A stretch of 13,766 nt of DNA from a virus: UHGV virus genome UHGV-0072288. One strand, given 5' to 3'. The notes under the pieces were generated by a model. It ran no database searches. It had not been told where the DNA came from and was given only the letters and a program-made list of their open reading frames with translations. Position 1 is the first letter of the stretch. The number at the start of each line of letters is the position of its first letter. Position numbers and translations under genes: made by a program. Below are positions 1 through 12,583 of this stretch, piece by piece.

Positions 1-42
1 TTTAGTACAGTACCCGTACTGTTTTCACGCTGTCAACAAAAA

Positions 43-61
43 ACGCGCCCGAAGGTGCGTT
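43..61 (-). terminator. Possible intrinsic terminator downstream of int (minus-strand transcript)
   Basis: Imperfect GC-rich hairpin ACGCGCC-CGAA-GGTGCGT at 43-60. An A6 run at 38-43 on the + strand gives a U-run after the stem on the minus-strand RNA. About 85 nt past the int stop. Stem has one mismatch on the minus-strand RNA. Confidence 0.3.
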
Positions 62-144
62 AATAATGCCTATCAAATAAGGCTCTCATTGATAAATCAA
101 TATGTTATGAGCGCCTTATTAACCCTAATACACCCTAAAATGCC

Positions 145-1138
145 CTAGTCGGTGGACATTATGTGGACACTCCCACGCATAGGGTTAAATCGTATGGCAT
201 CAGTCAGATAATCTGGGGCGAAGTGAGCATATGTCATTGTTTGCTCGATTGTTGTATGACCCAAAATACGCTGTAGCGTGATGATATTCCCGCCGTTGAT
301 CATGAAATGTGTTGCGAAGGTATGGCGTAAAACATGCAGTGCCTGACCTTTCGGCAAGTCTGGCTTAATCTTACGAAGAACATCGCGAACTCGCTCATAG
401 TTGGTATCGAACAATTTCCCCGATTTGCGTGTAAGGATGTAGTCCGCGATTTCCTTCGATATCGGAACAGTACGAGCTGGGCCGGTTTTGGTCTTAACAA
501 AGGTCACACGGTTACTTATCACGTTTTCAGCTTTAAGATTACTGGCTTCACCCCCATCGTGCTCCTGTATTCAGGCAAAGAACGACAACTCTGCGATCAT
601 CCCCTGTAAGGGCATTCAGCAAATGGTGGATCTCTTCTTCGGACAGAAATGACATTTCTGTGTTTTCCAGACGTAACTTCTTCACGGCGCGAAACGGGTT
701 TTCGTGATGAAATTCTTCCATATCTATCAGCAAACTGAACATGCTGGACATGGAACAGAAATCCCTGTTTACCGTGCCAGCAGATACTCCACTATGAAGT
801 CGTTCTGCACGATATTTCATCAGAAAGTTGCGGGTAAGCTCGTACACTCTGGGTTCCGCCATTTCTCGGTTGATTATTTCCAAACGCTTTTTATATGAGT
901 CACCATAGTTGTGATTCTTTCCATGGTAGCTCCACCATAAAGAAATTAACTCGGATACAAGCCTCCTGTCTGCGGGTTTATCCTGCCATTCTTTATCGTG
1001 AAAGTTTGTCAGTACATACCGCTCGTATGCCTGTGCTTCCGCCTTTCTGTCAAATTTGCGTCGAATCCTTCTTCCTGAGGTTCCGCGCGGTCTAACGTCC
1101 ACTTCAAAACGACCATCATCAAGCTTCTTAATCGACAT
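145..1138 (-). pseudogene. int: Tyrosine recombinase/integrase (P2 Int-like), reading frame broken by a +1 frameshift in a C5 run (551-555)
   Basis: Two adjacent minus-strand ORFs (548-1165 and 145-522) in different frames. N-terminal part MSIKKLDDGRFEV...LCLNTGARWG-stop; C-terminal part carries the catalytic tyrosine-recombinase region (HVLRHTFATHFMINGGNIITLQRILGHTTIEQTMTYAHFAPDYL). Removing one C from 551-555 gives a contiguous ~331-aa ORF (...GARWGEASNLKAENVISNRVTF...). Start set at ATG 1138 (GGAGGG 7 nt upstream) rather than the tool's 1165. Confidence 0.75.
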
Positions 1139-1204
1139 AGCGAAGCCCTCCGATGTATGAATCATTATGTAAATTTTGCGCTAACGCATAGAAAAACCAG
1201 ATGT

Positions 1205-1504
1205 TTAGCCAATTTTCCGGGTGGAACGGGATGATGTTATGTTGTCTTGCCCATCAGGGGAGAGAGACGGGGACACCTGCCCCGCAATTGGTGCCGTCTT
1301 ATCTGTCATTAACCAGAGTGTATATTTTTCAAACATATGTACCTCTATAACACTTTCTAAGACTTCTGCACGAGCTGGCTGATGGCCAGTTTCGTACTTT
1401 TTTATTGTTCCAAGAGCTACCCCAGTAAGCTCTGAAAAATCTTTTTGAGTTAACCCTTCAGCTTTCCGGATCTGCCGGAGTTTCTCCGCATAATTTCTTG
1501 ACAT
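1205..1504 (-). CDS. C: Immunity repressor, P2 C-like (99 aa, HTH)
   Basis: 99-aa ORF with helix-turn-helix (LTQKDFSELTGVALGTIKKYETG) and C-terminal KYTLWLMT...APIAGQ pattern resembling P2 C (recalled from memory). Lies upstream of int on the same strand and divergent from a cox-like gene, as in P2. Confidence 0.75.
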   Translation of the reverse strand: MSRNYAEKLRQIRKAEGLTQKDFSELTGVALGTIKKYETGHQPARAEVLESVIEVHMFEKYTLWLMTDKTAPIAGQVSPSLSPDGQDNITSSRSTRKIG

Positions 1505-1612: not shown

Positions 1613-1894
1613 ATGAAGGAACCAGCAGAAAAGGCGCTTTCAGAGTTGGTGACCCCTGAGCTTTTTGCCGAATATATAGGCAAAACGCCTGCTGCAATTC
1701 GCAAAATGGCCACGGCTGGAAAACTGCCGGTAATCCGCATGAAAGACCCTCTAAATCCATCAAAAAAAGGTGGGGAAATCTATATCCATCGGGGGGAATG
1801 GGATGCTTATGCCATTCATTTGGCTCAAATTGCCCCGCCTGAATGGCATGACTGGAAGAACCGTTTATTCACGAAAGATAAAAGTGCTCGTTAG
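1613..1894 (+). CDS. cox: Cox-like small DNA-binding protein (excision/lysogeny-lytic switch)
   Basis: 93-aa ORF divergent from the repressor gene with a good SD. Position and size match P2 Cox / 186 Apl. Sequence similarity not verified. Confidence 0.55.
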   Translation: MKEPAEKALSELVTPELFAEYIGKTPAAIRKMATAGKLPVIRMKDPLNPSKKGGEIYIHRGEWDAYAIHLAQIAPPEWHDWKNRLFTKDKSAR

Positions 1895-2265: not shown

Positions 2266-2835
2266 ATGAAACATTTAATGATTGACCTTGAAACAATGGA
2301 TAATAAACCGACTTCTGCGATTGCTTCTATCGGTGCTGTATTCTTTGACCCTGAAACTGGCGAAATGGGTGAACAGTTTTATCAACGTGTCAGCCTGGGC
2401 AGCTGTGTAGGCCACGGTCTCACTATGGGGTCAGAAACCGTATTATGGTGGATGCGTCAGGATGCCGAAGCGCGTAGCGAGCTGCTTAATGACGATTGTC
2501 TGGACTTGCCTCTGACGTTAGCTAATCTGGAAGCTTTTATTACTGAGCATTCTGACCCATCTAAAGTACAGGTATGGGGGAATAGTGCAGCGTTCGACAA
2601 TGTTATTTTACGTAATGCATCAGAGAAATGCGGGTTTGCCGATCCACTTTGGTACTACTGGAATGACCGTGATGTAAGAACGGTTGTTGAACTGTCAAAA
2701 ACACTTGGGCTGAATGTTCGTAATATTATTAAGTTTGATGGTGTTAAACATCACGCTTTATATGATGCCATTCATCAGGCTAAAGTTGTTTCTTATGTCT
2801 GGATGTATCTTGTAAAAATAGCCAGTGTGAAATAA
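2266..2835 (+). CDS. DEDDh-family 3'-5' exonuclease (DnaQ/epsilon-like)
   Basis: 189-aa ORF with Exo I motif MIDLETM (D-x-E), Exo II-like WGNSAAFDNVIL and Exo III HHALYDAIHQA (H-x4-D). SD AAGGA 6 nt upstream of ATG. Confidence 0.8.
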   Translation: MKHLMIDLETMDNKPTSAIASIGAVFFDPETGEMGEQFYQRVSLGSCVGHGLTMGSETVLWWMRQDAEARSELLNDDCLDLPLTLANLEAFITEHSDPSKVQVWGNSAAFDNVILRNASEKCGFADPLWYYWNDRDVRTVVELSKTLGLNVRNIIKFDGVKHHALYDAIHQAKVVSYVWMYLVKIASVK

Positions 2836-2837
2836 CG

Positions 2838-3056
2838 ATGCTTACAGTGACCTCTCATGCAAGTGAAAGTGTCATTCACAAGGCATTTTCAGTGCTGACA
2901 GAATATTACAACGGCAAAAAGGTATATCAGGTTATTAAGCCAAAACATTATTTCTCTGTTCATGTTTCTTATCGCTGGCGATTACTGAGTAAGGATAAGG
3001 GCAGAAGCTGGGAACTAATGACACATGAGCGATATAACAAGCAGTACAGAATATAG
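2838..3056 (+). CDS. Hypothetical small protein (72 aa)
   Basis: ATG 2 nt after the exonuclease stop, co-directional, ends just before the primase-helicase gene. No recognisable motif. Confidence 0.4.
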   Translation: MLTVTSHASESVIHKAFSVLTEYYNGKKVYQVIKPKHYFSVHVSYRWRLLSKDKGRSWELMTHERYNKQYRI

Positions 3057-3095
3057 TTTTTGCCTTTTACCCATTATTTCACATCTGGATTATTT

Positions 3096-5753
3096 ATGAA
3101 CGAAACGATACAACAGGACGTTGTGCGCCGTCTTGTTCGGGACTTTGAATTTAAAGAGCGGGATAAGTATTTGCAGCAGGGCGTTTGCCCTGCCTGTCGT
3201 AAGCGCGAATTATTTACCAGCATAGAAAAGCCCTGGATTCTGAAATGTGGCCGTGAAAATAACTGCGCACATCAGATTGTCGTGAAAGAGCTGTATCCGG
3301 ATATCTTTGAAGACTGGTCAAAACGTTACCAGACCACAGAAGATAACCCCCATGCAGTAGCTGAGGCGTATCTGCGCGAGGCCAGAGGGCTGGAGACTGA
3401 GCCATTAAAAGGCTGTTTTACCCAGGGTGCATTCGTGAAAGATGGCATGGGGTCGGCAACGGTCAGATTTTCGCTGTCATGCGGTGCAACATGGGAGCGC
3501 ATCATTGACCAGCCGCAGCGCTTCGGTAAGCAGAAAGCCAACATCAGGGGAAGCTATGTCGGTCACTGGTGGGTTCCTCCCTTTATCAACCTGCAGGAAG
3601 TGAACGAAATCTGGATCACTGAGGGAATCTTCAACGCGCTGAGTCTGTGCCAGGTAGGGTTACCTGCAGTTGCCACACTGAGCAGTAACAACTATCCGCT
3701 GGCCGCACTGGATACGCTGGCCAAAGAACTGGGTGAAAAACCACGTCCACGTCTTGTATGGGCGTTTGACGGCGATAAAGCCGGCACAAAGCACACACTG
3801 GCGTTCGCTGCCCGTAGTGATGCTGCAGGATGGAAAACTCGTGCCGCGCAGCCGGTGAAATCATCGGCATCGCTGGACTGGAATGACCTGTTGTTACGTA
3901 ACCGGTTCAGTAAGTCGGACATTAAAAATTATCGCTACTATGGCGATCTCCTTCTGGCAAAAAGCCCGACTGAGAAAGCGCTGCTCATGCATCAGCATAA
4001 CGAGTGGCACTCGTTCTACTTTGAGCATAACTCCCGCATGTACTGGTTTGAGCTGGATCTGGACAGGTATATGCGAGCCTATGAGCGCATCACCAATACC
4101 GGTACCGAAGTGGTGATGGAGTGGGAGGCCAAAGAACGGGCGGTTAAAGAGTCAGGCGGCGTGACCGAAATAGCTAACTGCTGGCTGACGCCGCTTTACT
4201 TTCAGCGGTCTGAACCTACGGACGAGTCCTGGTATTACGTGAAAGTCAGTATGCCTAACCGGCCAGCCGTGAAAGATACTTTCACGGCTAATCAGCTCAC
4301 CAGCTCCGCCGAGTTCAAAAAGCGTCTGCTGCACATCGCCAAAGGGGCGGTGTACACAGGCAGCACCAAACAGCTGGATAAGTTCATCCAGATGCGCCTC
4401 CCTGAAATCAAAGAGGTAAAGACGCAGAATTTCATCGGCTATAACAAGGATTATGCCGCCTGGTTGTTTAACCGCGTGGCCGTTTGCGATGGCCGGCTGT
4501 ATGAGATGAACGACGAGGATTACTTCGAAATCAACAGTGCCAGCGTTAAGAGCCTGAGCCTCACGCCGGCGCTGGATCTGAATCCGAAGCTGAACGAGTT
4601 TACTACGGGTTGGGTAGACGATATCTGGACGGCATTTGGTGAAAAAGGGTATGTGGCGCTGGCGTTCTGGCTGGGGTCGCTGTTTGCCGAACAAATCCGC
4701 GAGCGTGACAAGTCATTTCCGTTTCTGGAAATCGTGGGCGAGCCGGGGACAGGTAAATCCACGCTGATAGAATTTCTCTGGAAGCTCGCCGGCCGTGAGG
4801 AATACGAAGGGTTTGACCCATCTAAATCTACCGCCGCCGCGCGTGGCCGTAACTTCGCCCAGGTCGGTAATCTGCCGGTTGTGCTGATTGAGGGCGACCG
4901 TACTACCGATAACGCCAAGCAACGCGCTTTTGACTGGGACGAGCTGAAATCACTGTATAACGGTCGTGCCTCCCGCGCCGTGGGTATCAAATCGAACAAT
5001 AACGAGACGTATGAGCCGCCGTTCAGGGGAAGTATTGTGATAGCGCAAAATGCCGACACAGACGGCAGCAAGGCGTTTCTGGAGCGTATCATCCACATCT
5101 ATACCGACAAGCGCGGCCAGTCCATTCAGACGCGCCACGCTGCAGAACGACTTGAACAACTCCCCGTTAGCCAGGTATCCGGATTCACATTACTGGCCAC
5201 CATGCGCGAAAAAGAAATCATGCAGACGTTCGGCAGGGGGTACGAGCGAGCTAGGAATGAGCTGGAGTCTAATAGCAGTATTCGCCATATCCGTATTGCA
5301 AAGAATCACGCGCAGCTTGTGGGCTTGCTGGAGGCGCTTGCACTTGTTGTACCGGTGCCGGTTGAACGTATAGAAAAAACGCGTGAAGCCATCACCGCGC
5401 TGGCCGTTGAACGTTGTCAGGCACTTAAAAAGGATCATCCTCTGGTGCAGGAGTTCTGGGAGCTGTTTGATTACTTGGATGAACTGGCACCTTATGGCAT
5501 CAATCATTCATCAGATGAAAATGAAATCGCGGTTAATTTCAATCACATGGAAGAGGTCGCCGCAGCACACCGGCAGCGTATTCCGTTCACGTTAACGGAA
5601 ATTAAAAAGCTGCTTAAAAACGGCAATGAGCGCCGGTTTATCAGACAAAGCACCACGCGCAGCGCGGTAAGTGAGCGCCATAATCGTGGTAAAGGGGATA
5701 TGCAACGGATGCCGGAAACATTCCGCTGCTGGATATTTGGCCGGGAAAAGTAA
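3096..5753 (+). CDS. Replication primase-helicase (zinc-ribbon + TOPRIM primase + SF3/D5-type helicase), P4 alpha-like architecture
   Basis: N-terminal Cys4 zinc ribbon (CPAC...CGRENNC). TOPRIM motifs (WITEGIFNAL; VWAFDGDKAG). C-terminal P-loop NTPase with Walker A GEPGTGKST, Walker B PVVLIEGD and motif C IVIAQNAD. The tool starts at TTG 3060; ATG 3096 (MNETIQQ) preferred. Confidence 0.85.
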   Translation: MNETIQQDVVRRLVRDFEFKERDKYLQQGVCPACRKRELFTSIEKPWILKCGRENNCAHQIVVKELYPDIFEDWSKRYQTTEDNPHAVAEAYLREARGLETEPLKGCFTQGAFVKDGMGSATVRFSLSCGATWERIIDQPQRFGKQKANIRGSYVGHWWVPPFINLQEVNEIWITEGIFNALSLCQVGLPAVATLSSNNYPLAALDTLAKELGEKPRPRLVWAFDGDKAGTKHTLAFAARSDAAGWKTRAAQPVKSSASLDWNDLLLRNRFSKSDIKNYRYYGDLLLAKSPTEKALLMHQHNEWHSFYFEHNSRMYWFELDLDRYMRAYERITNTGTEVVMEWEAKERAVKESGGVTEIANCWLTPLYFQRSEPTDESWYYVKVSMPNRPAVKDTFTANQLTSSAEFKKRLLHIAKGAVYTGSTKQLDKFIQMRLPEIKEVKTQNFIGYNKDYAAWLFNRVAVCDGRLYEMNDEDYFEINSASVKSLSLTPALDLNPKLNEFTTGWVDDIWTAFGEKGYVALAFWLGSLFAEQIRERDKSFPFLEIVGEPGTGKSTLIEFLWKLAGREEYEGFDPSKSTAAARGRNFAQVGNLPVVLIEGDRTTDNAKQRAFDWDELKSLYNGRASRAVGIKSNNNETYEPPFRGSIVIAQNADTDGSKAFLERIIHIYTDKRGQSIQTRHAAERLEQLPVSQVSGFTLLATMREKEIMQTFGRGYERARNELESNSSIRHIRIAKNHAQLVGLLEALALVVPVPVERIEKTREAITALAVERCQALKKDHPLVQEFWELFDYLDELAPYGINHSSDENEIAVNFNHMEEVAAAHRQRIPFTLTEIKKLLKNGNERRFIRQSTTRSAVSERHNRGKGDMQRMPETFRCWIFGREK

Positions 5754-5766
5754 CGGTTCACTAGTG

Positions 5767-5831
5767 CCTAACTTTATTGTTAGGGGAAGGAGCGAACATT
5801 GAAGCAATAGGGGCGTTATCTTTATTGCTTC
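5767..5831. terminator. Two hairpins between convergent primase-helicase and glycosyltransferase genes (candidate terminators)
   Basis: Hairpin CCTAAC-TTTATT-GTTAGG at 5767-5784. Hairpin GAAGCAATA-(13 nt)-TATTGCTTC at 5801-5831 followed by a T-rich stretch on the + strand. The second overlaps the stop of the minus-strand gene. Confidence 0.4.
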
Positions 5832-6541
5832 ATTCTTATTTTAAAGTTCTTTAATTTACCGTACAGAGTATCCCGCAGGGAAAACGAAGGAACCCAATCA
5901 AAACCAGTACGCCAGGGGCGTGGACTGCCATGAAAGCAAACAACCGCCACATTATCAGGGACTTTCCCTGTCGCAGCCTCAGAGGCTAAATTTGCATTGA
6001 AGCCAATCATCGAGGGGGTGGCGATGTCACATTTATAACTAACAATTGAGCCAGGAATGATATCCTGCCATAGGGCTGGTTTTATGATGCTACCGAGAAA
6101 TCCCTGATCACCCCATTTGTCTTCAGTCTGACAATTGCGCATAATTTTCTCAGGATCAATAATGAATTGTTCCCAAATCGTCTTTTTAATCGACGCCGGA
6201 ATCATCATTATTGATGAGTTTACTCTTGAGGCATGGTTAAACTCCCGAAGCATTGTAAATTTCTTCGCACCTTCGAAAATATGAATATCTCCCGTGACCA
6301 CAACATCTACGTCAAAATAGAGTAAATCTTGGTCTCCAAGGACTGGGTGATTAGGATTAAATAGTTCAATTTTAGACCACCATCCCGGCCAGTTATAAAG
6401 CAAAGGGGTTGTGTTAACTCCAGGAATATTATCTGCATCGGTTAAACATATAGATGGAATATCTTTGAACTGACGATGAAGCCATTGGGCGTGTTTAGGG
6501 GTAAACTCTTTACTACATTTAAGAACTGAGACTATTAACAT
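5822..6541 (-). CDS. GT-A fold nucleotide-sugar glycosyltransferase-like protein (GT8-like motifs), hotspot cargo
   Basis: 239-aa ORF with strong SD (GGGAGG 6 nt before ATG at 6541). DxD motif after a hydrophobic strand (LLYFDVDVVV). C-terminal FHGSPRPW resembling the GT8 H-x-G-x-x-K/R-P-W motif. Noticeably AT-rich. Confidence 0.6.
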   Translation of the reverse strand: MLIVSVLKCSKEFTPKHAQWLHRQFKDIPSICLTDADNIPGVNTTPLLYNWPGWWSKIELFNPNHPVLGDQDLLYFDVDVVVTGDIHIFEGAKKFTMLREFNHASRVNSSIMMIPASIKKTIWEQFIIDPEKIMRNCQTEDKWGDQGFLGSIIKPALWQDIIPGSIVSYKCDIATPSMIGFNANLASEAATGKVPDNVAVVCFHGSPRPWRTGFDWVPSFSLRDTLYGKLKNFKIRMKQ

Positions 6542-6600
6542 AAGATGCCTCCCAAAATTTGGAAAGATAATATCATGTTTAGGAGGGGGGGACTATTAAT
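6542..6600 (-). promoter_or_regulatory. Putative promoter/5' region of the glycosyltransferase gene, containing a homopolymer tract
   Basis: SD GGGAGG (complement of 6548-6553). -10-like TATTAT (complement of 6568-6573). G7 run on + strand at 6585-6591 (C7 in the gene's sense) where the spacer/-35 would lie. No convincing -35. Confidence 0.3.
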
Positions 6601-6655
6601 CACTTGGTCATTCATCGACGTTGATAGATGGGAATCTGTTACATCTCAGAAAATA

Positions 6656-6680
6656 AAAGCACCGGTAGCGGTGCTTTTTT
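6656..6680. terminator. Bidirectional rho-independent terminator
   Basis: Stem GCACCG/CGGTGC (6659-6664 / 6669-6674), extendable with A-T pairs, loop GTAG. T6 at 6675-6680 on the + strand and AAAATAAAA at 6650-6658 (U-run for the minus-strand transcript). Immediately follows the stop of the Ogr-like gene. Confidence 0.65.
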
Positions 6681-7010
6681 CTATGCGGCAGCAGTGCCGT
6701 CCTGACTCAGAAACTTTAACATCAGCTGCTTTTGCTGGATATCAAGGCTGTTACAGATAGTGGCGATCAACGCATCGCTGGATTTGGCGCTGGGGCTGAT
6801 GGTATGTGAGAATGTCATATTCATCACAAAAGTGTGACCACATTCAACATCGGTACACGCGCAATATAAATCCGACAGTTCCTTGTGTTTTCGGGCTGTT
6901 TTTTTGATAACAGCCCTTGCCTCACATACCGGACAGTAAACCTTCATTACCCGCATATCCATCGCTCCGGAAGTTGGAAAACGATGATATTTTAGCCTTT
7001 TTGCGAACAT
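6681..7010 (-). CDS. ogr: Ogr/Delta-family zinc-finger protein (late-gene transcription activator family)
   Basis: CPVC-x22-CACTDVEC-GHTFV pattern matching P2 Ogr (CPLC...CQNVNCSATFI, from memory). Start ATG at 7010 overlaps the portal stop (TAATG) with SD GGAAGGTG upstream. Alternative internal starts at 6956/6947 would give an Ogr-sized ~88-91 aa protein. Confidence 0.65.
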   Translation of the reverse strand: MFAKRLKYHRFPTSGAMDMRVMKVYCPVCEARAVIKKTARKHKELSDLYCACTDVECGHTFVMNMTFSHTISPSAKSSDALIATICNSLDIQQKQLMLKFLSQDGTAAA

Positions 7011-8028
7011 TAATCACCTTCCAGCTCACTGTCTTTCAGGAAATTAAGGTACAGGTGGGGCGGTACATCACTTTCCTGTTCCACTGCGGCGGTAAACATG
7101 CGCTGAATGGGCAAAATTTCTGCTTTGCGGTAGGTTTTGGACGCTTTCTCAACATCTCCCATTACTGCGCCGTTCGTCGGGATAATCCCCGCCAGTCCTG
7201 CCGGGAATCGATGCGCGGTCAGTACGTCCTGGGCGCTGATGCTCTTGATGTTCTGAAACTCATCTTTGGCGCTGATATCCCCAATCGGGATAAATTTGAT
7301 GCCGTCCGGATCGCCTTTGGGGATGTTCACAAACATGGTGCTGAAGTTCCCGATCCCCTTTGACTGCTCCAGCTTCTGAATAATTTCTTCTTCCACTTCA
7401 TCAGTCATATTTGGGTCGTTACAGTAGATCATGCCACCTGTGTGTCCGCCGTTATGGTAGTAACGCCGACGAAAAATTGTTGCCTCACCGTTAAGCAGGG
7501 CAGAATGGATACCGCTGATATAATCCGGCAGACCATAAATCGCCTGTTGCGGATCGTACTGCCTGAGAAAAATAATATCTTCAGGCGGATAAATCATCGG
7601 TTCACCCTGCTGCAGTACCACAAACTCCCCGGTCTTACGCTGGCGGGTGAAGTGGAAGCCGGGGGTTACGGTCCCCCCCCCCCCCCCCAGCCGTTACGCA
7701 CTTTCAGAATGGCCACATCACCGAAGGTCAGCCAGTCGAACACGGCTGCACCAAGCTGTTCATGCGTCAGTCCGCCGTCTTTATAGTTTGCCGTCACCAT
7801 ATTGCGACGGGCATACAGCACACCGCCGTGCTGCGCGTTCAGGTTCACCAGTTGCGCCAGCGCCAGCCGGTCAATCGGGAGCGTCCAGTGTTCCGCTTCA
7901 TTGTCATACCAGACGTCTGTGTAGTTTGTGCCGGTCGTCAGAATGGGTTCCGGTTTACCCAGGGTAATAAGGCTCATATGGCGCGGCTTGCTGGCGGTGC
8001 GGCGTTCCCTGTATTTCCGTTTTTTCAT
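7010..8028 (-). pseudogene. Q: Portal protein (P2 gpQ-like), frame interrupted by a 16-nt homopolymer
   Basis: Two minus-strand ORFs (7666-8028 and 7010-7621) together give ~340 aa, matching the ~344-aa P2 portal. The upstream frame reads ...LKVRNGWGGGGGP-stop through the G16 tract. The downstream frame is open back through the tract (...GGGGGTVTPGFHFTRQRKTGEFVVLQQGEPM...). ATGA overlap with the terminase stop at 8025-8028. Confidence 0.8.
7673..7688. repeat. Homopolymeric tract C16 (+ strand) = G16 in the portal coding sense
   Basis: Direct count: 16 consecutive C at 7673-7688. Tract lengths of 14 or 17 would join the two portal reading frames; the observed 16 does not. Confidence 0.95.
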
Positions 8029-9158
8029 GCTGCTTTCCCTAAGTTACCCCAGCGTGATTTTCGCTGGTTTTCAAAGTTTAATGGCTCGTTGTCAATGGCA
8101 TGGGCGATAGCCCAGAAACTGTCTGCGTGTCCTGTTTCTGCTGTGCGATCGGCGACGAAAGTCATTGCGTTGCCGCTGGCCGTGGACGTACGGCGGATGG
8201 TCATAAAGCTGGCGGCGATTTCGGTCTTCTCCTTATCCCATTCCACGCGGCCGTCTTCGATAACGTCGATCATCTTCATCACCAGACGATTTTTGGTCTC
8301 GACGCCGTAGCGGATCGCCACTGCCTGACGCATGGCAAAGTGCTGAACGTCTTCAAAGACACCGCTACCCAGTCCAGTGATATCAATGCCGATGTAGGTC
8401 ATGTTGTACTGGCCAAACAGCTTCTTAATCTGTGCCGCCTGCCACTTCCAGTTCATCCCCTGCCAGTGGAATACACGCAGTACCCGAAATTTTTCGCCGG
8501 CCACTATCGGCGGCGCGATGATCACGAAGGTGGAGGTGTCTCCGCTGCGAGCCGGGTCATAACCCGCCCACACTTCACGGTTGCCGAACGGCCGGGGCAG
8601 GTTTTCGTCATGATCCTCCCAGAAATACCAGGTTGCACCAATCTGGCGGCTTTTCAGGATGTTCCTGATTTGCTGATGAAGATTAGCGCGAAGGTGTTTC
8701 TGGTAACCGAAAAGGTGCTCCAGCGCGAACCGGTCAAAATCTTCCTGTGTCAGTCCGCTGATGTCGTTCTTTTTGTACTTGCCACGTTTCCGGGGCTTTT
8801 CGTCGCCACCGGACTGACGCGCCGGCGCATCATTTTCACTGTGTTTAATTTCTGCCAGCTTTTCCTGATGCTTATTGTGCTGTGCACGTAGTTTCACCAG
8901 GTGAGAAACGAGACTGTCCAGCTCCCGCAGCTCCAGCTCCGATTTCCCTTCACGTAATGTCAGTGACTGAATGCGACGGTTTAATGCATCTTCGGTGGAT
9001 TCATGACTGAGTAATTCCGCCCAGCAATATTTCTCCGCCCAGTAATAGACAATGCGTCTGTTAGGCAGATTAAGTTCGCTGGCAATTTCCTGCGGGGTAT
9101 AGCGTTTTAAATAAAGCGCCCGCGCAACGCCTTTTAATTCTTCTGAATATTTAGCCAT
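8025..9158 (-). CDS. P: Terminase large subunit (P2 gpP-like), apparently shortened: N-terminal HTH plus C-terminal nuclease, ATPase core largely missing
   Basis: N-terminal HTH (YTPQEIASELNLPNRRIVYYW). Deviant Walker-A-like KSRQIGAT followed almost immediately by nuclease-type motifs (AGYDPARSGDTSTFVI; YIGIDITGLGSG; HADSFWAIAHA). 378-382 aa versus ~590 aa recalled for P2 gpP. Start uncertain (GTG 9173 or ATG 9158, neither with a good SD). Confidence 0.65.
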   Translation of the reverse strand: MAKYSEELKGVARALYLKRYTPQEIASELNLPNRRIVYYWAEKYCWAELLSHESTEDALNRRIQSLTLREGKSELELRELDSLVSHLVKLRAQHNKHQEKLAEIKHSENDAPARQSGGDEKPRKRGKYKKNDISGLTQEDFDRFALEHLFGYQKHLRANLHQQIRNILKSRQIGATWYFWEDHDENLPRPFGNREVWAGYDPARSGDTSTFVIIAPPIVAGEKFRVLRVFHWQGMNWKWQAAQIKKLFGQYNMTYIGIDITGLGSGVFEDVQHFAMRQAVAIRYGVETKNRLVMKMIDVIEDGRVEWDKEKTEIAASFMTIRRTSTASGNAMTFVADRTAETGHADSFWAIAHAIDNEPLNFENQRKSRWGNLGKAA

Positions 9159-9301
9159 GCACACATTATGCACGGGCGTTTGTATATTAAATCCCGCTTT
9201 ATTTCTGATGTGTTCGGCTAATAGCCTATATCCGAAATGAAGTGAATGCGGCGGTTAATTTTATTGGCGATACTGAAAACCGCAGCATGAACGGAGGCAA
9301 T
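9159..9301. promoter_or_regulatory. Divergent late-promoter region between terminase (P) and scaffold (O) genes
   Basis: Position equals the P2 divergent P/O late-promoter interval. Strong SD GGAGG at 9294-9298 before the O ATG. No TGT-N12-ACA Ogr-type dyad found by eye. Confidence 0.35.
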
Positions 9302-10141
9302 ATGTCAGGTTCACAACTGGCAACAAACTGGATTTGTATCGCCACTGCGGGTGAAACGGTTGATAAGCGATTTATTGAAGAACAATGGTTGCTTGATGCC
9401 GCTGAATTATATGACCCCTCTTTGTATACCGCGCTGTTATGGCCGGAACATTCCCGTAATTTCGGGAATATGGGGGAGGTGCTGGAAGTAAAAGCCGAGC
9501 GGGATGATGAAGGTATTCTTCGTTTATATGCCCGCCTCTGTCCGGCGATTTCATTGCTACAGGCAAATGCAGACGGTCAGCTTTTATTTTTATCACCGGA
9601 GTTTACACCGGACGGCAATTTCAGAAATACCGGGAAAACCTATCTTGAGGGACTGGCCATTACTGACAGTCCGGCCGGGGTAAGCACCACACGGTTACGT
9701 TTCAGCCGCACCAGGGGAAAACGCATCGGACCATACAAGCCGCTGGCGTTTGATGAAGTCAGGGAATTTAAAAAGGAAAAGGGAATGTCAAAGACAGCGA
9801 AAAAGGGCTGGCGCCATTTTTTCAGTATCGAAGAACCGGAGCAGACCCCGGAGCAGGAACCTTCACAGTCTGATGCCTTACAGGCGCTGGCTGAAGCGCT
9901 GGATGCCATTGATAAGCGCGTATCTGCTATTGAAACCCGTCTGGGTGAGGCGGAAGAAGCGGTATCTGATGTGCAGGACGATGTGGACACCGTGAAGGAA
10001 GTAGTGGACACCGAAGATTTTGCGCGTCTGGTGGGGAACCTGCCGGAGCTGGTGAAAAACTTCAGCAAGCTGAATAACAAAGTTACTCAACTGCCGGACA
10101 AGAAATTCAGCAAGGGCAAAAAAGGCTTCAATTTCCTGTAA
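9302..10141 (+). CDS. O: Capsid scaffolding protein (P2 gpO-like)
   Basis: 279 aa from ATG 9302 with GGAGG SD; the tool's 9242 start is GTG. N-terminal region resembles gpO and the C-terminal half is acidic/coiled-coil (EEAVSDVQDDVDTVKEVVDTEDF). Sits between terminase and major capsid genes. Confidence 0.75.
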   Translation: MSGSQLATNWICIATAGETVDKRFIEEQWLLDAAELYDPSLYTALLWPEHSRNFGNMGEVLEVKAERDDEGILRLYARLCPAISLLQANADGQLLFLSPEFTPDGNFRNTGKTYLEGLAITDSPAGVSTTRLRFSRTRGKRIGPYKPLAFDEVREFKKEKGMSKTAKKGWRHFFSIEEPEQTPEQEPSQSDALQALAEALDAIDKRVSAIETRLGEAEEAVSDVQDDVDTVKEVVDTEDFARLVGNLPELVKNFSKLNNKVTQLPDKKFSKGKKGFNFL

Positions 10142-10175
10142 GGGATAACACTACTTTTCTTTAAGGAAAAAGAAT

Positions 10176-11204
10176 ATGCAATTAAATGCGAAAGCCCGTG
10201 AGTTTCTGCTTCAGTATCACACCGGGCTGCGTGAATCCTACGGGGCGACCGACAGCGAACGCTGGTTTGCACTCACCGACCCCAAAGAAACCCAGCTGCG
10301 CAATGCGCTGATGGAGCAGTCTGATTTCCTGAATCTGATCACCGTTGCCGATGTCGATCAGCTGCAGGGGCAGGTGGTTCCGGTTGGCAGCTCTGGCCTG
10401 TATACCGGGCGTGTACTGGATGGCCGCTTCCGTAAGAAAGTGGGCGTGAGTGGTAATGATTACAGTCTGGTCGAGACCGACTCATGCGCCGCACTCACCT
10501 GGCAGTTGCTTTCTGTCTGGGCGAACGCCGGCGATGAAAACGAGTTTTTCCAGCGTGTTCAGGAGTTCACCAATCAGGCGTTTGCGCTGGATATGCTGCG
10601 TATCGGCTTTAACGGTACCAAAGTGGCCGAGACCACGAACGCGGAAACCAACCCGAACGGCGAGGATGTGAACAAGGGCTGGCATCAGATCGTCAAAGAG
10701 TGGAAGGACGGCCAGCAGATCATCACTGATGCGGTGGTGCTTGACGGTGACGGGAAAGGCGATTACGTGTCGCTGGATGCAATGGCCTCCGACCTTATCA
10801 ACGCCAAAATCCCGGCACAGTACCGTAATGATCCACGCCTGGTGGTTCTTGTCGGCGCTGATCTGGTCGCGGCGGAGTCGTTCCGTCTGTATCAGAAAGC
10901 AGACAAACCCACGGAGAAGATCGCCGCGCAACTGCTGTCTGACAGCATCGCCGGCCGCACGGCTTACGTACCGCCGTTTATGCCAGGCAAACGCATGATT
11001 GTTACGACACTGCCAAACCTGCACATCTACACCCAGCGCGGCACGCGTCAGCGTAAAGCGGAGTTTGTGGAAGACCGTAAACAGTACGAAAACAAATACC
11101 TGCGTAACGAAGGTTATGCGGTTGAGTATCCGGAACTGTACGCCGCGTTTGATGAAAGTGCGGTAGCTATCGGGGCACCTGTCGCGCCTCCGGCAGGCGA
11201 GTAA
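10176..11204 (+). CDS. N: Major capsid protein (P2 gpN-like)
   Basis: 342-aa ORF directly downstream of the scaffold gene with SD AAGGA. Size and position match P2 gpN (~357 aa). Confidence 0.75.
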   Translation: MQLNAKAREFLLQYHTGLRESYGATDSERWFALTDPKETQLRNALMEQSDFLNLITVADVDQLQGQVVPVGSSGLYTGRVLDGRFRKKVGVSGNDYSLVETDSCAALTWQLLSVWANAGDENEFFQRVQEFTNQAFALDMLRIGFNGTKVAETTNAETNPNGEDVNKGWHQIVKEWKDGQQIITDAVVLDGDGKGDYVSLDAMASDLINAKIPAQYRNDPRLVVLVGADLVAAESFRLYQKADKPTEKIAAQLLSDSIAGRTAYVPPFMPGKRMIVTTLPNLHIYTQRGTRQRKAEFVEDRKQYENKYLRNEGYAVEYPELYAAFDESAVAIGAPVAPPAGE

Positions 11205-11214
11205 GGGGGATTTA

Positions 11215-12252
11215 ATGCAACTGTCACCGGCACAGCGCCACAGCGCACGAATTGAAGCGGAGCGGTTACTGCGACAGCAGCAGTCTCTGGACACGGAAAC
11301 CAGCCTGCATATTCAGATTGTCGCGCTGGAGAAAGATGTCGCCGCAGCTGCAGCGATTGAAAGCCGCGCTGAGCGAATGGAATTTAAGCGTGATGTGCTG
11401 TTACCGCGCTGGATGCCAACCGCGCAAGCCGGGACGGTTATCCAGACAGAGCGCATTAACGGTCGCGTGTATGAGCTGGCCACCAGTGAGGATGTAGTGA
11501 TCGCTTCCGGTACGGCCTGCGCATTACTGCCGGTAAAAGCCACCGGCACCGGGGGCGCATATAACCTTGCGCCGGGATATTACCGCATTCTGCCGGTTGC
11601 CGTTGACGGTATCAGCCACGTGGCCAGCGAAGAAAACTGGCTGACCGTACCGGGCGCGGATGAAGAAAGTGATGACGAGCTGCGCGAACGCTGCCGCAAT
11701 CAGTTCAATCTGGTGGGGAATTACCACACTGACGCCGTTTACCGGTCGATGATTGCCGGCGTTGCAGGGCTGAGTATTGACCGGATTTTCTTTGAACATG
11801 AAGCGCCGAGGGGACCCGGTACCGCCAACGCGTATCTGTTGCTGGACAGCGGGGTGGCTTCTTCGCCGTTCGTGGATGCCGTCAATGACTATATCAACAC
11901 GCAGGGGCATCACGGCCACGGTGATGATATGCAGTGCTATCCCATGCCGGAAACGCTTCATGATCTGTCCGTCACAGTTTATGTCAAAAATCTGGCCAAT
12001 TTCAGCGATGAGGACAGGAAAACCCTGAAGGACGGGGTGGAGAACATGATCCGCTGTGCTTTTCGTGAGAATGCTGATTATGACGTCAGGAAGACGTGGC
12101 CATATTCGCGTTTTTCCTTTTCTCAGCTGGGGCGGGAGATCCACAGGACATTTGCTCAGACGGAATCACTGTCTTTTTCACTGGGTGATATCACCAGCGA
12201 ACTGAGTGTTCCACGCCTGAAATCGCTTGCGGTTGTTGTTGAAAATGAGTGA
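11215..12252 (+). CDS. Chimeric ORF: terminase small/endonuclease subunit (gpM-like) N-terminus (~73 aa) fused to a baseplate protein J-like body
   Basis: N-terminus MQLSPAQRH...KRDVLLPRWMP matches the gpM start (MTSPAQRH...KRELLPFWLPW, from memory). The remainder (...ESDDELRERCRNQF...GVASSPFVDAVNDYI...) resembles P2 gpJ (...ESDTDYRLRIQQAF...GVASEDLLAVVRNAL...). Implies an in-frame deletion of the M-to-J interval. Confidence 0.5.
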   Translation: MQLSPAQRHSARIEAERLLRQQQSLDTETSLHIQIVALEKDVAAAAAIESRAERMEFKRDVLLPRWMPTAQAGTVIQTERINGRVYELATSEDVVIASGTACALLPVKATGTGGAYNLAPGYYRILPVAVDGISHVASEENWLTVPGADEESDDELRERCRNQFNLVGNYHTDAVYRSMIAGVAGLSIDRIFFEHEAPRGPGTANAYLLLDSGVASSPFVDAVNDYINTQGHHGHGDDMQCYPMPETLHDLSVTVYVKNLANFSDEDRKTLKDGVENMIRCAFRENADYDVRKTWPYSRFSFSQLGREIHRTFAQTESLSFSLGDITSELSVPRLKSLAVVVENE

Positions 12253-12583
12253 GTTCCTGAAAAAGCTGGCCGGGATGGTGCTTCCTTCCTGGATGAACAA
12301 AGGCGAGCCGGCGAAGCTGCTGAAAACGGCGCGGCGGTTCTGGACTGAGGTTTACGGCTGGGTTACGTGGCCAGTGAATCAGTTCGATCCGCTGACGTGT
12401 ACGCCGGCATTACTGAACCTGCTGGCGTATGACCGCGATATACCGACCTGCTTTTGCGCTGGTTTACCGGTTATGTTGAACGTTCACAACCAGCTGAAAA
12501 CGGTTATCAGCGTCTGTTCATTCGTGAGCTGGCCGGTGTTTTTGAAAGGATGTGGCCATGTTCATTTCAGCACCCGACATTAA
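12245..12583 (+). CDS. Tail protein I-like (gpI / YmfQ family), C-terminal part doubtful
   Basis: ATG 12245 overlaps the upstream stop (ATGAGTGA). N-terminal ~65 aa (...VNQFDPLTCTPALLNLLAYDRDI) resembles gpI (...WNPDTCPANLLPWLAWAFSVDRWD). After ~12440 the frame is Cys-rich and atypical, while frame 2 opens at 12433 and stays open to the window end. Confidence 0.45.
   Translation: MSEFLKKLAGMVLPSWMNKGEPAKLLKTARRFWTEVYGWVTWPVNQFDPLTCTPALLNLLAYDRDIPTCFCAGLPVMLNVHNQLKTVISVCSFVSWPVFLKGCGHVHFSTRH

Follow-up and report, generated by a model that had tools for sequence, protein, structure and literature searches.

Gene order and attachment site

The window (the whole 13,766-nt stretch of DNA analysed) carries an integrase gene, int, which belongs to an ESSI-2-like, P2-type Escherichia coli prophage inserted between raiA and pheL, at the raiA terminator. 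The int end of the element contains the following features:

38..60, no strand assigned: att core, int-proximal copy, about 22 nt (AAAACGCGCCCGAAGGTGCGTT); the reference lysogen has a second copy, with one mismatch, 29 kb away at the raiA terminator
145..1138, minus strand: int pseudogene, P2-type tyrosine integrase, 993 nt plus 1 inserted base
1205..1504, minus strand: C-type immunity repressor, 99 aa, with a helix-turn-helix (HTH), encoded upstream of int in the same orientation
1498-1527: Pe-like, near-consensus predicted promoter, with divergent cox
1613..1894, plus strand: Cox, excisionase/regulator, 93 aa, divergent from C-int

Where complete E. coli genomes carry the element, it forms a prophage of about 29 kb flanked by pheL and raiA. 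The two copies of the repeat lie at 209-230 and 29280-29301 of the reference lysogen locus, and the reconstructed empty site is contiguous in 5,273 of 5,426 E. coli genomes. The 22-nt repeat is the att core, with int adjoining it as in P2. Apart from one base, this core is the raiA terminator hairpin. An acyltransferase gene is found just inside the raiA-proximal att copy of the reference element.

On its other side, int adjoins the C/cox region, and the arrangement of int, C and divergent cox is the P2 lysogeny switch; the order att, int, C, divergent cox is the same in P2 and in the window. Several gene callers report only a 43-aa ORF (1205-1336) in place of the 99-aa repressor on identical DNA, an inconsistency of gene calling. 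Genes past cox encode a 111-aa ORF, a 3'-5' exonuclease, an 885-aa toprim primase, an ogr/delta-type zinc-finger protein, portal, terminase, scaffold and a P2-family capsid. Related genomes carry the annotation "ParE family toxin-like protein" (72 aa) for a small plus-strand ORF at about 2838-3056, in the gap between exonuclease and primase. No Rfam family reached its gathering score in the window.

Unlike P2, the element uses the raiA terminator as its attachment site, has an ESSI-2-like backbone and carries the 885-aa toprim primase in place of P2 gpA. The closest deposited phage is Escherichia phage ESSI2_ev239 (NC_049392.1), with 89% DNA identity over 2781-11433 and 99.4% for the capsid. 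Its complete 29.2-kb genome differs in the int/immunity module, and megablast found nothing in it that matched window positions 100-1200. Megablast of the int region against deposited phages returned only a 48-nt match; at the DNA level this int module is absent from sequenced phages.

A P2-type integrase in two reading frames

Within int, three features define the lesion:

548..1138, minus strand: N-terminal fragment, 196 aa, comprising arm-binding region, Int_N core-binding domain and the part of box I that runs to R194-W-G
145..549, minus strand: out-of-frame C-terminal part, residues 197-330 plus stop, with Lys 215/217 of the beta-hairpin, H268-x-x-R271, H294 and the Y303 nucleophile
551..555, no strand assigned: C5 run, which reads G5 (TGG GGG TGA) on the coding strand; in intact alleles it is C4 (TGG GGT GAA, encoding W195 G196 E197)

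The earlier note described the N- and C-terminal halves of a P2-type integrase in different frames, and minus-strand translation confirms the split. Residues 1-196 begin at position 1138 with an ATG that has the ribosome-binding site GGAGGG ahead of it, and end in ...LNTGARWG with a TGA at 548-550. Residues 197-330 (EASNLKAENV...MSTD) are in another frame, with a stop at 145-147. The only run of five C or G in the gene is the one at 551-555. Deletion of one C from this run, as the note proposed, does restore an uninterrupted ORF of 330 aa; no residue is lost or gained at the junction, and the product matches P2 Int without a gap through it. A 120-aa PF00589 fragment was called by JGI within the out-of-frame C-terminal part.

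The repaired translation matches the Pfam families Int_N (1.6e-27) and Phage_integrase (PF00589, 8.6e-20), both above gathering score. It is 57% identical to P2 Int over 322 residues, about 98% of its length, and integrases of P2 and its relatives show 57% identity over 98-100% of the repaired protein. The structure of P2 integrase (PDB 5c6k) is matched at E = 4e-98 with no gap across the junction and GARWGEA in both proteins, and HP1 Int (PDB 1aih) is matched at 2.8e-47. The match to P2 integrase is far beyond chance, and the P2-type label given earlier stands. The integrase catalytic domain also matches chain 14 of PDB 9i5v (401 residues, E = 8e-09), which is named "Ribosome-associated translation inhibitor RaiA". 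This name is probably an oddity of the entry, a curious one given that the prophage adjoins raiA.

The window's protein shares its family, arm-binding N-terminus, Int_N core-binding domain and catalytic domain with P2 Int (PDB 5c6k / 5dor; Peduovirus P2), and keeps the box I GARWGEA, H-x-x-R, H and Y motifs. Its catalytic set (R194, K215/217, H268, R271, H294, Y303) aligns with identical motifs in P2 Int. Unlike P2 int, the gene is interrupted after residue 196. The break falls directly after catalytic R194, and K215/217, H268-x-x-R271, H294 and Y303 are downstream and out of frame; with a TGA after residue 196 and the rest in another frame, no single frame holds all the catalytic residues. 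By descent int is a member of the P2-type tyrosine integrase family, but it is a pseudogene.

Replication slippage offers a simple route to this allele. The W195 and G196 codons (TGG GGT) of the box I sequence G-A-R-W-G-E form a run of four G, and slippage would add one G to make five. The G5 allele would be read TGG GGG TGA, and translation would stop after residue 196, two residues past the first catalytic arginine, R194. This would put the Lys, His-x-x-Arg, His and Tyr303 out of frame and leave no protein with both R194 and Y303, so the recombinase would be dead. Any box I with the conserved R-W-G must encode at least four G in a row (TGG GGN) at the catalytic arginine and so has a slippage-prone site built in.

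Origin of the extra base

A comparison with orthologous integrases, proposed in the earlier note, was carried out. Megablast of the int region against 5,426 complete E. coli genomes returned 18 full-length and four truncated copies. All four near-identical E. coli alleles that were aligned have C4 at the position of 551-555, a run one base shorter than in the window. For 15 complete-genome matches, the alignment falls one base short of the query and has two differences overall, a length that implies C4. Two of these 15 genomes were checked and encode the intact protein WP_000023380.1, which strain H4 carries. The CDS of this intact allele lies at the same position, and 145-1138 is that CDS plus one base. 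By comparison of these sequences, the extra C is private to the window's element.

The intact allele (e.g., in E. coli 2018-18.25PC, NZ_AP023286.1) is the same gene at the same site, with two differences in 994 nt. It has C4 and K88, whereas the window has C5 and I88, and its prophage is complete, about 29 kb in length, with no deletions. In a collection of 15 billion proteins, intact WP_000023380.1 occurs on 567 contigs, and the I88 allele of the window is present only as the 196-aa truncated product. An intact I88 version was not found in this collection, and neither were a 205-aa alternative-start fragment and a 125-aa GTG-start C-terminal fragment. The JGI metagenome contig collection, scanned with a C4-or-C5 pattern and a 31-nt flank, gave no matches and evidently does not contain the locus.

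The I88 difference is a private T>A substitution at 876 (K88I), and int has no further mutation beyond it; the lesion is therefore either recent or not real. A876 also breaks the coding-strand A6 run at 873-878, so that a second slippage-prone spot is removed in the window allele.

Gene callers report the exact 196-aa truncated product in five assemblies (a NODE contig, two MEGAHIT, a JGI and a scaffolded assembly):

Assembly 1, the window itself: ENA ERZ1741973, NODE_991_length_13766_cov_4.40777, metaSPAdes-style, from a human-gut metagenome at low coverage
Assembly 2: ERZ27239385, contig k119_8777, which spans 32 kb and extends to rpsP and ffh in the E. coli chromosome
Assembly 3: ERZ918738, run ERR525732, project PRJEB6456
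Assembly 4: JGI 3300029086
Assembly 5, scaffolded: ERZ28565595, BAEC15-1_SAMEA2579949 scaffold_935

All five are 100% identical to the window in all overlaps, including C5. PRJEB6456, the gut metagenome project of Bäckhed on mothers and infants, was sequenced on Illumina. A single sample or read set very probably underlies all five assemblies, given that they break at the same position, 7648, where two contigs stop and the N-gap of a third assembly starts. As the read set is probably shared, the C5 allele has no independent biological replicate. The break is followed in the window by one further feature:

7649..7681, no strand assigned: poly-C filler, an assembly artefact; low-complexity, with about 17 C at its end, and absent from every reference

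In its place scaffold_935 has a stretch of 40 N, and 7648 is the last position of two MEGAHIT contigs. The portal gene is split here into ORFs of 120 and 195 aa; a further frameshift was considered and rejected, as the split is caused by the filler in a coverage gap.

The earlier note left undecided whether the extra C is a homopolymer error or a real lesion, and the evidence favors a real lesion. If C5 were a sequencing or consensus error, the true sequence would be C4 and the integrase would be intact with K88I. Such an error would fit the low coverage of the contig (4.4 in its NODE_991 label), the filler artefact in the same contig, the apparent origin of all assemblies in one read set, and the absence of C5 from complete E. 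coli genomes and from all but these contigs among the 15 billion proteins. However, C5 is common to five pipelines with different assemblers, and it is the only private single-base indel in 13.7 kb, poly-C filler aside, although the window has 61 homopolymers of at least five bases and 213 of at least four. The five assemblies and the lack of a second private indel suggest that C5 is what the reads say and not the quirk of one assembler. The int region, unlike the filler in its coverage gap, comes out identical in all assemblies. Indels at 5-base homopolymers are rare in Illumina data, and the same element has other reproducible inactivating lesions. An error is thus an unlikely source of the extra C, and a real slippage mutation, which we judge to be much likelier, is strongly favored by these comparisons.

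Decay of the prophage and of int in other strains

Three deletions were scored against the reference prophage of about 29 kb:

8621..8626, junction: in-frame deletion of 648 bp in the large terminase gene (593 to 377 aa)
11426..11433, junction: deletion of 8.2 kb from gpM to the baseplate-J gene, giving a 345-aa fusion ORF (11215-12252)
12437..12441, junction: deletion of 3.95 kb in baseplate/tail-fibre genes

Microhomology of 5-8 nt is present at each of the three junctions. Chimeric assembly was rejected as their source, as MEGAHIT contig k127_1754 and scaffold_935 have identical junctions, which are therefore seen in three assemblies in all. Together about 12-13 kb has been lost, including part of the terminase gene and the head-completion, tail, lysis and tape-measure genes. 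Because these deletions are reproducible, the element would be a defective remnant even with an intact int.

P2 requires Int for both integration and excision, and excision also requires Cox and IHF. By analogy with P2, a remnant that lacks Int would be unable to excise or re-integrate and would stay at the raiA-pheL site. The facts given in the earlier note were all correct and its interpretation is supported, with one qualification to the proposal that the lesion locks the element in the chromosome. The integrase is probably dead, but the frameshift is one of several lesions in an element that has lost about 12.8 kb, and not the sole immobilizer of an otherwise intact prophage.

The G5 allele could in principle be leaky. 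A +1 slip of tRNA-Gly from GGG to GGU at the UGA (UGG GGG UGA A; 30-nt context ACAGGAGCACGAUGGGGGUGAAGCCAGU), as in prfB, would yield low-level full-length Int, so that the integrase would be attenuated and not dead. In prfB, an SD-like element 3 nt from the slip codon stimulates +1 shifting. At the window's site, a shift at GGG|UGA would give ...R-W-G-E-A..., the same as the intact protein, the stop codon directly follows the slip codon, and AGGAG is found upstream. However, this SD-like AGGAG is 8 nt from the GGG slip codon, compared with 3 nt in prfB, and re-pairing from GGG to GGU is poor. The site is also unconserved, every relative examined being in frame with G4, and with the virion genes lost a regulated Int has no evident use. 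A leaky lesion of this kind is very improbable. The same slight weight is given to the broader possibility that G5 is not a null allele, through a trickle of full-length Int from such a slip, and separately to the idea that an abundant 196-aa fragment, with arm- and core-binding domains but no catalysis, is a dominant-negative or architectural att binder. If the fragment did bind att sites, it might stabilize the remnant or interfere with incoming related phages.

Other int lesions, of four kinds, occur in seven of the 22 complete E. coli genomes with the gene:

873-878, minus strand: A6 to A7 frameshift, E. coli PSJ-12 and 23CRST024, two Ecuadorian strains
936: W68* nonsense mutation (C936T), an internal stop, E. 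coli HZ13
int: IS1 insertion with deletion, E. coli BY63, BY68 and I3
int: IS100 insertion, E. coli E89

NCBI's annotation pipeline flags these copies (PSJ-12, 23CRST024, HZ13, BY63/BY68/I3 and E89) as pseudogenes. PSJ-12 and 23CRST024 resemble the window in having a +1 homopolymer expansion in int at the same insertion site, at a different position within the gene. As a group, the pseudogene copies differ from the window's in position and mechanism and are therefore independent inactivation events. The window's C5 lesion is a fifth, independent event in what is the usual picture of prophage decay.

A phase-variable homopolymer that switches int on and off would also place the change within a homopolymer, and two other strains have A7 in place of the A6 run at 873-878 of the same gene. 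The tracts measure just 4-6 bases, 4-5 at the C5 site, well under the 7-8 or more typical of homopolymer tracts at contingency loci. A single C5 lineage stands beside hundreds of contigs with C4, and the stop codon and IS insertions in other strains point to unselected decay. A switch is the least credible of the readings considered. On the preferred reading, the int frameshift is a real slippage mutation and belongs, as one of its steps, to the ordinary decay of a cryptic prophage. The gene is most probably an ordinary frameshifted integrase pseudogene, a real one, in a decaying ESSI-2/P2-like prophage of gut E. coli, and is of an already-known kind.

The lesion has little import beyond annotation. 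The gene should be annotated as a pseudogene, the frameshifted integrase of a defective ESSI-2/P2-like prophage inserted in E. coli at the raiA-pheL site, and gut virome catalogues should not count the element as an inducible prophage or a viral genome. Among carrier strains, one integrase gene has been inactivated in at least five independent ways, which shows how often loss of int fixes prophages in place. In BY63, one of the strains with the IS1 insertion, the early region up to the tape-measure gene has been lost.
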